Virus record (IMG/VR): IMGVR_UViG_3300030098_002348
Source: an uncultured virus (IMG/VR IMGVR_UViG_3300030098_002348)
Taxonomy: Duplodnaviria > Heunggongvirae > Uroviricota > Caudoviricetes
Direction: 5' to 3' (one strand)
DNA length: 20,000 nt
Under the pieces are notes generated by a model. The model had not been told where the DNA came from. It ran no database searches and was given only the letters and a program-made list of their open reading frames with translations. Below, in pieces: positions 9,723-20,000 of this stretch. The number at the start of each line of letters is the position of its first letter. Position 1 is the first letter of the stretch. The translations under genes were made by a program, and so were the position numbers.

Positions 9723-11573
9723 TGTTCCAGTTACTGTAAATGTAGCTATTTTCTCTCCCGTAGGACTATGAGTTGTAGATGAATTAGTACCAGGTGTTAC
9801 CTCAAAAGTAACTGAACTCGGACCCCTTACTACAACTATTCCTGATCCACCAGCTCCAGCACATCTTCCAGAGGCAGCACCGCCACCTCCACCACCACCG
9901 CCAGTGTTAGCGCTTCCAGCTTGTGCGGCAACTCCAGGGTCATTAGCTGATCCATTACCTCCACCACCAGAACCACCTTGAGTTGGTAATGGTTGTGGGG
10001 GACTTCCTGGGTGGTCTTTTGTACCACCACCTCCACCACCTCTAGTGACTGATGAGCCTGTAATAGATGATGCTAAACCATTTCCTCCAGAACCACTTGG
10101 TCCCGGTCCTCCAGCTGCACCGGCACCACCACCGCCTCCAGCTGTGCCTTCTGGTGTACCAGAAGCAACACCTCCTGGAAAACCTTGATTTGCAGTTCCA
10201 GCACCAACAGCAGGTGCTGAGGTTTCACATCTACCAGCTCCACCACCAGAACCTCCAGCAACACCAGCACGAGGAGGGGCTCCTCCACCACCTCCACCAC
10301 CACCGGTTGAAGTTATAGTTGAAAATACTGAATTAGTACCGCTACCGCCATCTGCGCCTGGCGCAGAATCTGGACCTGCTGCACCACCAGCTCCGACTGT
10401 AATATCATGAGTACCAGCACCTAAAAAAATTTGTGCTTCTGTGCTTGCACTTGGTCCACCTGGAGTTTCACTTCCAAAAGAATTTCTATATCCTCCAGCA
10501 CCACCTCCACCGCCTGGAGTTCCACCTCCGCCTCCGCCGGCGATTACTAAGAAACTTACATCAAAACCTTTTGCTGGCCAAGTTCCACATTTTACTGCTT
10601 GAAACTGTGATTGCATTGACCATACACCAGTTGCTTTATCTAATTCTTTAATTGCTGCAACACCAGATCCTCCGGCTGCTCCTGCATAACTATTAATATT
10701 TCCTGGTGGTCCACTACCAGGATAAAATACACTTCCTCCACCACCTCCACCACCAGTGTTGGCTGTGCCTGCTGTTCCAGCTTCTCCTGTTATAGGGCCA
10801 TCAGGTGCATTACCAGCGGGACCTCCGCCACCGGCTCCGCCTAAACCACCTCTTGTGTTTTGGTAAGTGGGTGTTCCATAAGAACCTGAACCACCGCCAC
10901 CACCACCGACTTTACAACTTGATAAAAAGGGTTGACCTGGAAAAGCTGTTGGGGCTATTCCAACACCACCGGCTCCAGCATTACCTCCAGGTGTAGTAGA
11001 TGCATTTCCACCGGCACCTCCCGCACCACCACCTCCGCCACCACCTTGGATGTTGGGTGATGAACAATTACCTTTACCACCTGGGTTACCAAAATTTCCT
11101 GGTTGAGGGGGAGTATTACCTGATGCGCCACAAGCGTTAGCTGTTGAAGCTCCACCACCACCCGAGCCACCTGCTTGTGCAGTGCATGTTGCTTCATAAC
11201 CACCTCTACCACCACCTTCTGAAGTGTATGTAGTTCCGCATGCAACTATTGTTGAATCTGTTCCTGAAGCTCCGCCACCACTACTTGGTCCAGCAGCTCC
11301 ACCACCACCAATTGTGGTTGCAATTGTTGCTCCACCAGTTGTAGGTAAATTAAATTCTCTTACACCGCCAGCTCCACCACCACCGCCTCTTTGACCTGGA
11401 CCTCCGCCACCACCTGCAACTAATAATGCAGTTATTTCTCTAGTTCCTGGCTGTGTAACATTTGAAAAATCTCCACTTGAGGTTCTTGTTTGAACAGTGC
11501 ATTTTCCAAAAGAAGTTTTATTAGAAACTCCTATTACACCACCATTTGCTGAGCCAGATTTATTTCTAGGCAT
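9708..11573 (-). CDS. Glycine-rich tail fibre/adhesin-like protein with two tandem Gly-rich domains
   Basis: 621 aa. Two units, each opening with LxxAGGGGG and closing with ANTGGGGGG...GAGGSG[VI]xx[IV], the architecture of polyglycine-II bundle domains in phage fibres. Confidence 0.8.
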   Translation of the reverse strand: MPRNKSGSANGGVIGVSNKTSFGKCTVQTRTSSGDFSNVTQPGTREITALLVAGGGGGPGQRGGGGGAGGVREFNLPTTGGATIATTIGGGGAAGPSSGGGASGTDSTIVACGTTYTSEGGGRGGYEATCTAQAGGSGGGGASTANACGASGNTPPQPGNFGNPGGKGNCSSPNIQGGGGGGGAGGAGGNASTTPGGNAGAGGVGIAPTAFPGQPFLSSCKVGGGGGGSGSYGTPTYQNTRGGLGGAGGGGPAGNAPDGPITGEAGTAGTANTGGGGGGGSVFYPGSGPPGNINSYAGAAGGSGVAAIKELDKATGVWSMQSQFQAVKCGTWPAKGFDVSFLVIAGGGGGGTPGGGGGAGGYRNSFGSETPGGPSASTEAQIFLGAGTHDITVGAGGAAGPDSAPGADGGSGTNSVFSTITSTGGGGGGGGAPPRAGVAGGSGGGAGRCETSAPAVGAGTANQGFPGGVASGTPEGTAGGGGGAGAAGGPGPSGSGGNGLASSITGSSVTRGGGGGGTKDHPGSPPQPLPTQGGSGGGGNGSANDPGVAAQAGSANTGGGGGGGGAASGRCAGAGGSGIVVVRGPSSVTFEVTPGTNSSTTHSPTGEKIATFTVTGTLTVS

Positions 11574-11582
11574 TGTGTCCTC

Positions 11583-12074
11583 CTATGCGGACACCCAAGC
11601 TGTGCCGTTCCAATCGTAAATTGTTTTGGTTTCCGCTGTATCGTCTGATTTAGTTGCTTCCCAACCTTTAGTGTTGTCAGCTTCGTATTTTGTTTCGTTC
11701 CACTTAATTATATAAAACCAAGTTGGTGGAGATTCGCCGTCATTTTCTATAGATGGATATGTTATTGGTGCTTGCCAATCGTCGTTATCATCTAAAGACC
11801 ATGAAGCAAAAGGTTGTGGTTCTAAAAATTTGTCTTTTACAGGATCATAAATATCTCCAATGCCTGCATATTTTTTTCTAAAATTATTATTGTAAGAAGT
11901 TTGTTTCCAATCACCACCTTTGAAAAAATTAACACACCAAGTTTCTCCGTCAGGGTGCATGTCTGAAGGAACACAGTCGTTTCCAACAACTACAACTCTT
12001 TGTACTACTTGATGTGAATCTGATGTAAATCCAGTAGGATCTGTCATTGTTTTTAATTCTGCGAAATGTGCCAT
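11583..12074 (-). CDS. Conserved hypothetical partner of Gly-rich fibres (possible chaperone or fibre component)
   Basis: 163 aa with MAHFAEL..VVQRVVVV..W.QTSYN.NFRK.YAGIG..YD...D.F..PQPF.SW pattern; lies between the two Gly-rich genes; AAGGAG RBS. Confidence 0.65.
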   Translation of the reverse strand: MAHFAELKTMTDPTGFTSDSHQVVQRVVVVGNDCVPSDMHPDGETWCVNFFKGGDWKQTSYNNNFRKKYAGIGDIYDPVKDKFLEPQPFASWSLDDNDDWQAPITYPSIENDGESPPTWFYIIKWNETKYEADNTKGWEATKSDDTAETKTIYDWNGTAWVSA

Positions 12075-18789: not shown

Positions 18790-18816
18790 AAATTAAAGGT
18801 GCCCCCGAAGGGGCAC
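18790..18816 (-). terminator. Rho-independent terminator with UUCG tetraloop
   Basis: Minus strand GTGCCCC-TTCG-GGGGCAC followed by CTTTAATTT, just downstream of the stop at 18827. Confidence 0.8.
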
Positions 18817-18826
18817 TCTAATTATA

Positions 18827-19771
18827 TTAGTTAGTGTCGTTAACCTGTTGAGTCCAATAAATGTTTAACACACCTTCTCCGGCTGTTAATGCATCATCAG
18901 TCTTAGCAGTGATAACTACTGCTTTGTCCATCTCAAAACCAGCAGCATCGTCATCTGAAACATTTAAACAATTTTTCATCTGAGCAACTGTTTGGTCCAT
19001 TCCAGTTGGAATGTGATGCGAAGCAATGGCTTTTACATCGTTATCAGCATCACCTGCAAAGTAGTCAAGATCTAAACTGTTTAGAGTAGCTCCTGCTGCT
19101 TGTGCAACGTTAGCACCGATTTGCATGTCAAAGCCAGCTGTATCGAAAGCTTCGTTAACTACAAATCTAATATCGTTAATTCTAGAAAATTTAGGAATTA
19201 CAATATTGTTTGCTAAGTTTTTGCTAGATGAAGTTGATGATTGACCAAGTGGGTATTCGTTAAATAACGATCTACACACAACTGAAATTAATCCAGTTTC
19301 GATTACACCAACCGATAAAGTGCCTGCAGTACCAGAACCATCAATGTCTATAGCAGTTACAGTTTTGAAAGTTTTAGCAGAAGTTGCAACGTCAGCATTT
19401 GCCATTGTTACATCTTCAGTTTGTGCGTTGTCTAAAACATCTGTTCCAGTAATTGTTGCAGTTCTTGCAGAGTCATTACCAGCAGATGTTAAAGTAATTA
19501 CAGACGCCATTTCAAAACCACCATCAGAAGTTATTCCAGGTACATTTTGAGTTGAGTCAACTAATGTAACAGAAGTTGTACTAGCTCCGTTAGAACCAGT
19601 TACAGCTAATTTGTCAGCATCAGTTGTTACAGTAAAGTTACTGTGATTTACAGGAAAAGACGCGTGACATTCTACGAATGCAACGTTTCTTACATTATCA
19701 GAAATTGTACTTCCTGTAGTGTTTTGTATTCGGCCAACGTTAATTGGTCCCGAAAAGTTTGTTCTTGCCAT
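18827..19771 (-). CDS. Putative capsid-associated (decoration/fibre) protein
   Basis: Start re-called at ATG 19771 (MARTNFSGP; GGAGG at 19784-19780) instead of 19786; 314 aa, Thr/Ala/Asp-rich beta protein; own promoter and terminator suggest high expression. Confidence 0.6.
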   Translation of the reverse strand: MARTNFSGPINVGRIQNTTGSTISDNVRNVAFVECHASFPVNHSNFTVTTDADKLAVTGSNGASTTSVTLVDSTQNVPGITSDGGFEMASVITLTSAGNDSARTATITGTDVLDNAQTEDVTMANADVATSAKTFKTVTAIDIDGSGTAGTLSVGVIETGLISVVCRSLFNEYPLGQSSTSSSKNLANNIVIPKFSRINDIRFVVNEAFDTAGFDMQIGANVAQAAGATLNSLDLDYFAGDADNDVKAIASHHIPTGMDQTVAQMKNCLNVSDDDAAGFEMDKAVVITAKTDDALTAGEGVLNIYWTQQVNDTN

Positions 19772-19779
19772 AATTAAAT

Positions 19780-19856
19780 CCTCCAAGGTTAGATCATGTA
19801 GTCTCTTGGCCGTCGACTATACGCGTCTACATGAAATATTATTAATTTGTATAGTG
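19780..19856 (-). ncRNA. Candidate cis-regulatory structured leader RNA (three interleaved helices)
   Basis: Pairings 19855-19849/19822-19816 (7 bp), 19834-19827/19801-19794 (8 bp) and 19809-19805/19787-19783 (5 bp, overlaps the SD). Confidence 0.6.
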
Positions 19857-19861
19857 TGGTT

Positions 19862-19890
19862 TTTATACAACAGTTTTTAGTAGAGCGCAA
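19862..19890 (-). promoter_or_regulatory. Putative sigma70-type promoter
   Basis: TTGCGC (19890-19885), 17 bp, TATAAA (19867-19862); predicted start near 19855 coincides with the first leader helix. Confidence 0.55.
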
Positions 19891-19937
19891 GAGGGCCTAT
19901 AATGTGGATTGGATTTTTCCAACGATGTAGCTTTTTA

Positions 19938-20000
19938 TTAAGTAGCTACAGAAACTTGAGGAGCCGCATCATCTATTTTAAGCTGCAGATCAGCTTTTTT
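19938..20000 (-). CDS. 3' end of an upstream gene (truncated)
   Basis: Open frame KKADLQLKIDDAAPQVSVAT* ending in TAA at 19940-19938. Confidence 0.55.
   Translation of the reverse strand, partial: KKADLQLKIDDAAPQVSVAT

Follow-up and report, generated by a model that had tools for sequence, protein, structure and literature searches.

What would three crossing helices in a leader RNA do for the virion gene behind them? The question is raised by a 20,000-nt stretch of DNA from an uncultured virus of the Caudoviricetes (the window), near the end of which the initial annotation had described three perfect helices interleaved in the order A-B-A'-C-B'-C'. Every segment is present exactly as it was described, on the minus strand, which is the coding strand (Table 1). 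The arrangement is that of a kissing-hairpin (K-type) pseudoknot. Hairpins A and C have complementary loops, and the pairing of these loops gives helix B, whose two strands are separated by only 29 nt in one chain. The duplex energies in the window are -5.6, -8.7 and -4.3 kcal/mol for A, B and C, respectively. Past the 3' strand of helix C (C', CTTGG) come AGG, 8 nt, and then the start codon ATG at 19771-19769 (- strand).

Table 1. Features of the leader and its surroundings in the window, in 5' to 3' order along the minus strand
Feature	Position	Strand	Basis or remark
-35-like box TTGCGC (TTGCRC in relatives)	19885..19890	-	conservation; putative promoter
-10-like box TATAAA	19862..19867	-	17 nt past the -35 box, 6 nt ahead of helix A
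Helix A, 5' strand ACUAUAC (DNA ACTATAC)	19849..19855	-	19855 is the putative first transcribed base
Loop L1, 14 nt in the window	19835..19848	-	variable, A/U-rich
Helix B, 5' strand TCATGTAG, within the loop of hairpin A	19827..19834	-	sequence and covariation
Junction J1, ACGC	19823..19826	-	sequence, 100 leaders
Helix A, 3' strand (A') GUAUAGU (DNA GTATAGT)	19816..19822	-	sequence and covariation
Junction J2, CGACGG, separating the two hairpins	19810..19815	-	sequence, 100 leaders
Helix C, 5' strand CCAAG (CCUAG in most relatives)	19805..19809	-	sequence, covariation and haplotypes
Junction J3, AGA	19802..19804	-	sequence, 100 leaders
Helix B, 3' strand (B') CTACATGA, within the loop of hairpin C	19794..19801	-	sequence, covariation, haplotypes and RNAalifold
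Loop L3, TCTAAC	19788..19793	-	variable, A-rich
Helix C, 3' strand (C') CUUGG (DNA CTTGG)	19783..19787	-	sequence and covariation
Shine-Dalgarno core GGAGG	19780..19784	-	first two bases are paired at the outer end of helix C
Downstream gene, 314 aa, MARTNFSGP...	18827..19771	-	virion-module protein
Intrinsic-terminator-like hairpin with T run	18799..18816	-	10 nt past the stop codon

Could such an arrangement arise by chance? When the 92-nt leader was shuffled 3000 times with dinucleotides preserved, one shuffle reached a kissing arrangement of 20 bp. Among 1992 real 92-nt tiles of the window, taken from both strands, three reach it, and two of these are the element itself, read on either strand. 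The third (about 1969-2060, - strand; 7+7+6) lies inside a coding sequence and is roughly what chance would give. The nested fold of the leader is ordinary (MFE -14.5 kcal/mol, z = -0.31). Nested folding of the single sequence was set aside as a test, for the method is blind to pseudoknots and its best fold differs from the conserved one. The single sequence of the window is unusual, yet alone it is suggestive and borderline, not decisive. The case for a real fold lies in the covariation among relatives.

Covariation among relatives of the leader

Where are the relatives found? A blastn search of 19600-20000 against phage records gave two matches, at 77.6% identity to Pelagibacter phage HTVC027P and at 81.0% to phage 023Pt_psg01, and each of them spans the non-coding stretch. 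In the three-way alignment of these with the window, the three helices are kept via changes on both sides. By covariance model R1, the window and both phages each have the leader once, with next best matches at E 0.06-0.7. For a larger sample, viral contigs were scanned with a 14-mer from the conserved upstream region rather than from the leader, to avoid bias towards the helices. This first set has 122 loci (L001-L122), of which 113 carry the family promoter word and the other 9 are chance matches. It gave 103 distinct leaders, and four of them with a different leader and a different gene (L070, L095, L103 and L115) were left out; the remaining 99, all on HTVC027P-like pelagiphage contigs, were joined with the window into an alignment of 100 leaders (A2). 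A second set was gathered via the leader core instead of the upstream word, and 124 of its 130 loci are distinct and usable. Contigs of Pelagibacteraceae single-cell genomes, including one of 59.5 kb, carry the leader core too (L127-L136). Genome bins labelled with unrelated taxa contain it as well (L127-L136), and these are probably mis-binned phage contigs. Judged by comparison of these sequences, the fold is conserved across hundreds of ocean phage contigs, from phages that infect SAR11.

The initial annotation had named the absence of compensatory changes in homologous leaders as evidence against the fold; such changes are abundant. The structure as first drawn, plus one extra pair, gives 21 pairs and 2100 pair cells in A2. 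Standard pairs fill 99.8% of the cells, and 14 of the 21 pairs show changes on both sides, in 207 cells. None of 500 shuffles reached the observed value for four of five measures, and 2 of 500 did for the fifth. When the 3' partners are slid by 1-3 columns, only 17-39% of cells pair. Helix B has the strongest signal, with compensatory changes in all of its 8 pairs and 99.9% of cells paired; the numbers are 3 of 7 pairs and 99.7% for helix A, and 2 of 5 pairs and 99.8% for helix C. A mutual-information scan over all column pairs, which uses no structure, puts helix B pairs in 6 of the 7 top places and also recovers pairs of A and C, and RNAalifold picks helix B unaided. Note that many contigs are closely related, so cell counts overstate the number of independent events, and haplotype counts and slid controls are safer guides. 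Helix B has 38 haplotypes in A2, and 37 are fully paired. The sole exception is in L054 (677-769), an aberrant leader that has extra bases inserted around A' (ACGTGAA...GCGCGTTACGG) and in which one pair of helix B is broken. The second set agrees: of its 124 loci, 121 have helix A paired, 121 helix B and 123 helix C, and 45 haplotypes of helix B occur among them. At its far end helix B gains 0-5 further pairs and thus reaches 8-13 bp overall, so that its stability is untuned.

Does the constraint act on DNA or on RNA? There are 28 G-U or U-G cells and a single A-C cell. Therefore it acts on the coding-strand RNA, as the initial annotation had it, and not on DNA.

The helices are joined by three junctions, which had been pointed out as G+C-rich. 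They are indeed so, and in the 100 leaders they are also conserved, with near-fixed length and sequence. J1 has 4 nt in 93 leaders (ACGC in 69, ACGA in 18, ACCC in 6), J2 has 6 nt in 83 (CGACGG in 72), and J3 has 3 nt in 95 (AGA in 82, GGA in 11). The loops are different in kind: L1 varies over 7-17 nt and is 96% A+U, and L3 varies over 5-8 nt and is 64% A. A conserved core in which helices covary and unpaired bases are kept is thus present, as in riboswitches. Two further pairs may flank the helices. Positions 19824 and 19815 (- strand) are G:C in 93 leaders, C:G in 6 and G:U in 1, where all six C:G cases belong to one B haplotype and may represent a single event. Positions 19810 and 19804 (- strand) are G,A in 83 leaders and C,G in 14. 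Tentatively, with these two pairs formed, the A' strand and the C strand would each be closed off as a loop-like segment; either change may be one evolutionary event. A steric objection to having 19824:19815 alongside helix A was dropped, since kissing complexes include fully paired 7-nt hairpin loops.

Promoters and the 5' end of the leader

Where does the transcript begin? The initial annotation had placed the 5' end of the fold at a predicted transcription start, and the comparison of promoters supports this. In A2 the -35-like box is TTGCAC in 64 leaders and TTGCGC in 36, and the spacing from TTGCRC to (A/G)TATAA is fixed in all 100. The distance from the -10 box to helix A is constant in 98 of the 100, though the sequence of this spacer varies; it is 7 nt counted from ATATAA, which equals 6 nt from TATAAx. 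By its conservation, the TTGCRC-17-TATAAA region would be a promoter. A scan of the window with the E. coli promoter consensus does not list the conserved TTGCGC-17-TATAAA site. It instead places a promoter inside the leader (19845-19816), a call that we take as spurious.

Five loci of the second set (L135, L163, L184, L214 and L246) have another upstream context, and their leader and gene type are unchanged. Here a capsid gene and a strong intrinsic terminator come first; a TTTACA-like -35 box, sitting inside the terminator hairpin, is separated by 17 nt from TATAAT or TATATT, and ACTATAC follows after a further 6 nt. The -10 box of this unrelated promoter ends 6 nt ahead of helix A in all five loci. 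Two unrelated promoters keep an equal distance, and we therefore infer a transcription start at or adjacent to the first base of helix A. Probably the transcript starts at the first paired base itself. Are there RNA sequences that bear on this point? A near-identical relative (L100) was found, as contigs only, in 24 runs of 16 studies, with 15 of the runs recorded as RNA. The leader is covered in the contig sets of four runs (X3, X4, X10 and X9), and some RNA-library contigs bridge the promoter; contigs cannot show ends, nor do they prove transcription as such. There may also be read-through transcripts from the capsid operon, in which helix A would be internal.

A second leader gives a comparison. 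This sister leader, behind the same promoter, precedes a different gene (MTTHF...) on 45 distinct contigs (among L257 onward), and it is also the one carried by the four leaders left out of A2. The 5' strand ACTAAG, at its very start, forms 5-7 bp with the loop of a downstream hairpin of 8-10 bp, and a short G+C hairpin presents AGGAG in its loop. From the sequences, a common logic would hold for both leaders: the 5' end is tied into a pseudoknot, and the ribosome site lies beside a short G+C helix.

The ribosome-binding site, the downstream gene and possible roles

According to the initial annotation, the fold sequesters the Shine-Dalgarno site. One part of this stands: C' overlaps GGAGG in the window, and in 97 of the 100 leaders it runs directly into AGG or AGA, so that it overlaps GGAG(G/A). 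The other part does not hold as well. Of the 5 GGAGG bases, only 2 are part of helix C, both in its outermost pairs. Moreover, three leaders (L021, L047 and L119) read CTAGG-AAAAGGAG, with the ribosome site 4-5 nt downstream of C', and they retain A, B, C and the junctions intact. In these leaders the site has moved and the fold is kept; therefore the fold is independent of covering that site. A conserved alternative pairing, which might serve as an expression platform, was not found in the leader alignment, nor was there a signal for pairing of L1 or L3 with the spacer or start region (13, 51 and 114 of 200 permuted partners were as good). The word 'sequestering' thus appears to overstate the sequence evidence, and a constitutive role would fit at least equally.

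What kind of gene is placed behind the leader? It had been called capsid-associated, and it does lie in the virion module next to the capsid gene: two small genes after it in HTVC027P, and directly after it in L135 (Pfam Phage_capsid_4). More virion genes follow downstream of the terminator on the same strand. The 314-aa product has no Pfam or PHROG family and no tblastn match among phage records. It has more than 800 metagenome relatives, none of them named, and an exhaustive search against cluster representatives gave 190 matches. Every gene behind this leader begins with M-A-x-T-x-F-x-G-P, and the remainder varies in length and sequence; for example, the counterparts have 172 aa in HTVC027P and 156 aa in L135. 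Residues of about 48-160 recur, often in multiple copies, in flagellins, FlgK hook-associated proteins and beta-helix proteins, which suggests that this central domain may be a surface-exposed module. An AlphaFold model of the product has a mean pLDDT of 75 and a disordered N-terminus; with Foldseek it gave TM values of 0.1-0.2 against PDB, and only uncharacterised phage proteins against BFVD. As for expression, the HTVC027P counterpart, gp62, is listed among the late genes (Table S3, PMC12753301). In the final sample of the time course it reaches 28,568 TPM, where the capsid gene has 74,585, gp61 36,186 and the next gene, gp63, 9,428 (PMC12753301). At the third-last time point gp62 exceeds the capsid gene, 12,786 to 10,371 TPM (PMC12753301). 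The main text of that transcriptome paper does not mention a promoter, non-coding features or gp62.

Then what is the leader for? Our preferred reading, at a probability of about 0.45 still a tentative one, is that the leader acts constitutively, shielding the 5' end and setting how strongly a late, highly expressed virion gene is translated. In this view, HTVC027P-like phages of SAR11 (Pelagibacter) carry a cis-acting 5' leader of about 85 nt that would start at the first transcribed base. Hairpins A (7 bp) and C (5 bp) have their loops paired via B (8-13 bp), with the three short G+C-rich junctions holding the structure. As the 5' end would be paired in a locked pseudoknot, it would be hidden from the decay enzymes that depend on it, namely RppH, RNase E and possibly RNase J, and the ribosome-binding site would be fixed in place at the foot of the weak helix C. 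The outcome would be a long-lived late virion mRNA with a defined translation rate, whatever variable gene body follows. The sequences show the fold, the strand on which it acts, its conservation, its one copy per genome and its constant distance to two kinds of -10 box; the transcription start, the decay protection and the translation effect are what we infer for the leader. The account in PMC3997798 gives the enzymatic background: RNase E cuts more than tenfold faster when the 5' end is accessible than when it is base-paired, and Bacillus RppH requires at least two unpaired 5' nucleotides.

The constitutive role is favoured because helix A would stand at +1 under two promoters, because the sister leader uses a matching 5'-end logic, and because the fold persists when the ribosome site leaves helix C. 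Several points speak against it. A plain 5' hairpin would suffice as a shield, which leaves the elaborate fold and the near-invariant unpaired junctions unexplained. By their sequence, the ACGC, CGACGG and AGA junctions look like a binding pocket. In addition, C' overlaps the ribosome site in nearly all leaders, and the helix C stem is short in every case, a trait it shares with pseudoknot riboswitches. Read-through transcripts with an internal helix A, if present, would weaken this reading as well.

These points lead to the reading proposed at first, an effector-driven translational switch, which we consider possible but somewhat doubtful. A metabolite or a protein would bind at the A/B/C junction, for example free unassembled gene product through its conserved N-terminus, and it would stabilise helix C and limit access of the 30S subunit. 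The unpaired junctions, near-invariant and constant in length at 4, 6 and 3 nt where the helices covary freely and the loops vary, are what such a switch would be expected to show. So are the overlap of C' with GGAG(G/A) and the constantly weak helix C of 5 bp (-4.3 kcal/mol). The leader always travels with the M-A-x-T-x-F-x-G-P N-terminus, the rest of the protein being variable, and where a different gene occupies the same place, the leader is different too. The layout, in which the 3'-most pseudoknot strand touches the ribosome site, resembles those of SAM-II, SAM-V and preQ1-II. However, the paired part of GGAGG is limited to two bases at the end of helix C, the fold stays intact in the three leaders whose ribosome site is outside it, and a conserved alternative pairing was not found. 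An aptamer that has to start exactly at +1 would also be unusual, and the leader has no Rfam match and no known ligand or protein. A special form of the switch, in which the junction is the pocket of a new riboswitch class for a small metabolite of the infected SAR11 cell, is unlikely. If true, a metabolite would set the output of a variable virion-surface protein in very abundant ocean phages.

Might the leader act on transcription instead? The put RNAs of phage HK022 are promoter-proximal structured RNAs that modify RNA polymerase. A put-like leader would make the polymerase read through the terminator into the tail genes, and several facts fit: the leader comes directly after the promoter, a terminator stands behind the first gene with further virion genes on the same strand, and the transcript level in HTVC027P drops only about threefold across this terminator. 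But a partial terminator alone accounts for the threefold drop, so close a connection with the ribosome site and start codon would not be expected, and there is no likeness to any Rfam family; we regard this reading as quite improbable. Still less credible is pairing of B with B' between molecules, to give dimers or rings, as the loops of the phi29 packaging RNA do, or a role of the RNA itself in trans as a small RNA. Covariation cannot separate pairing within a molecule from pairing of identical molecules, and the gene sits in the head module; yet B and B' are close together in one chain, the RNA continues straight into the coding region, and there is one copy per genome with no terminator between leader and gene. 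Finally, a DNA-level feature (operator inverted repeats or a recombination site) or a chance arrangement could be suggested by the palindromes ACGCGT and GTCGAC in the leader region and by the location at the border of a variable gene, but from the sequences it appears all but refuted, as the tolerance of G-U over A-C fits only a one-strand RNA, a paired change abolishes both palindromes in 6 leaders, and the 45 helix B haplotypes stay complementary. Even taken together, the transcription-acting, intermolecular and DNA-level readings are unlikely.

Comparison with known structured RNAs

Is the leader new? It had been left without a family in the initial annotation, and Rfam 15 gives no match either, for the window at 19000-20000 (E up to 10) or for 20 related loci (E up to 1). 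By sequence, it would be a new RNA family, while the kissing-hairpin pseudoknot itself is a known kind.

Among the closest known systems are the stabilisers at the 5' ends of the ompA, papA and aprE leaders. As would be the case here, the first transcribed nucleotides of a highly expressed message are paired in them. These stabilisers are simple local hairpins, whereas here the 5' strand closes a hairpin that is locked by a second one, with conserved junctions. The flaviviral xrRNAs, as they are described, are similarly a protein-free viral fold, in which interleaved pseudoknots wrap the 5' end and block 5'-dependent decay. However, xrRNAs lie in the 3' UTRs of eukaryotic RNA viruses, are organised around a three-way junction, and the enzyme they face is Xrn1; they are unrelated to the leader in sequence, and the analogy is one of principle only.

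On the side of regulation, SAM-II, SAM-V and preQ1-II are compact pseudoknots without a separate expression platform, with the 3'-most strand touching the ribosome site and with conserved junction bases, and SAM-V is a riboswitch of SAR11. The leader of the window differs from them in being a kissing-hairpin and not an H-type pseudoknot, in pairing only 2 ribosome-site bases, and in having no Rfam match. The rpsO (S15) leader and the alpha operon leader (S4, a double pseudoknot) are pseudoknotted leaders through which a protein controls translation of its own message. The pseudoknotted 5' leader of phage T4 gene 32 is described as a further case of such control (PMC10690425). Compared with the three, both topology and sequence are different here. 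The gene downstream encodes neither a single-strand-binding nor a ribosomal protein; it is a virion-module protein without Pfam or PHROG family, and not the single-strand DNA-binding protein gene found behind the T4 leader.

Might the leader have been seen before? From viral contigs, Fremin et al. 2023 compiled over 10,000 candidate structured RNAs (PMC10690425). Some marine entries in their catalogue are assigned Pelagibacterales hosts by prediction and have hundreds of members; DNAVirus_3593, of 112 nt, has 348 sequences (PMC10690425). The main text names no pelagiphage motif, and the leader core was not found in the supplements, the two alignment files excepted (PMC10690425). The leader may already be among these candidates, unnamed. 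In the literature library searched, no paper joining 'pelagiphage' and 'pseudoknot' was found.

Pelagiphages are among the most numerous viruses of the sea, and post-transcriptional control of their gene expression is almost unknown. The leader has strong comparative support, and with about 85 nt it is small enough for structure determination. It gives a direct test of how phage mRNA persists and is translated in a slow-growing host, for which the sister leader with its matching 5'-end logic is a natural comparison. It could also become a compact expression module for marine alphaproteobacteria.

Some minor features of the window are worth recording. Upstream of the promoter, at 19938-20000 (- strand) and running off the window, is the end of a small ORF with the conserved C-terminus ...APQVSVAT*. 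It corresponds to gp61, which has 40 aa in HTVC027P; the protein is conserved in both complete relatives and is unannotated in 023Pt_psg01. A conserved hairpin GTAGCT/AGCTAC (19949-19944 with 19932-19927, - strand) spans the stop codon of this ORF. A second conserved hairpin pairs TTGGA (19922-19918) with TCCAA or TCCAC (19913-19904), and it is TTGAA/TTCAA in relatives. These hairpins, in the region 19904-19949 between the small ORF and the promoter, have no U run after them, and their covariation is biased because part of the region is fixed by the search word. Elsewhere, the G+C content of 10001-12000 is 47.5%, compared with 32-43% in the other 2-kb bins of the window.
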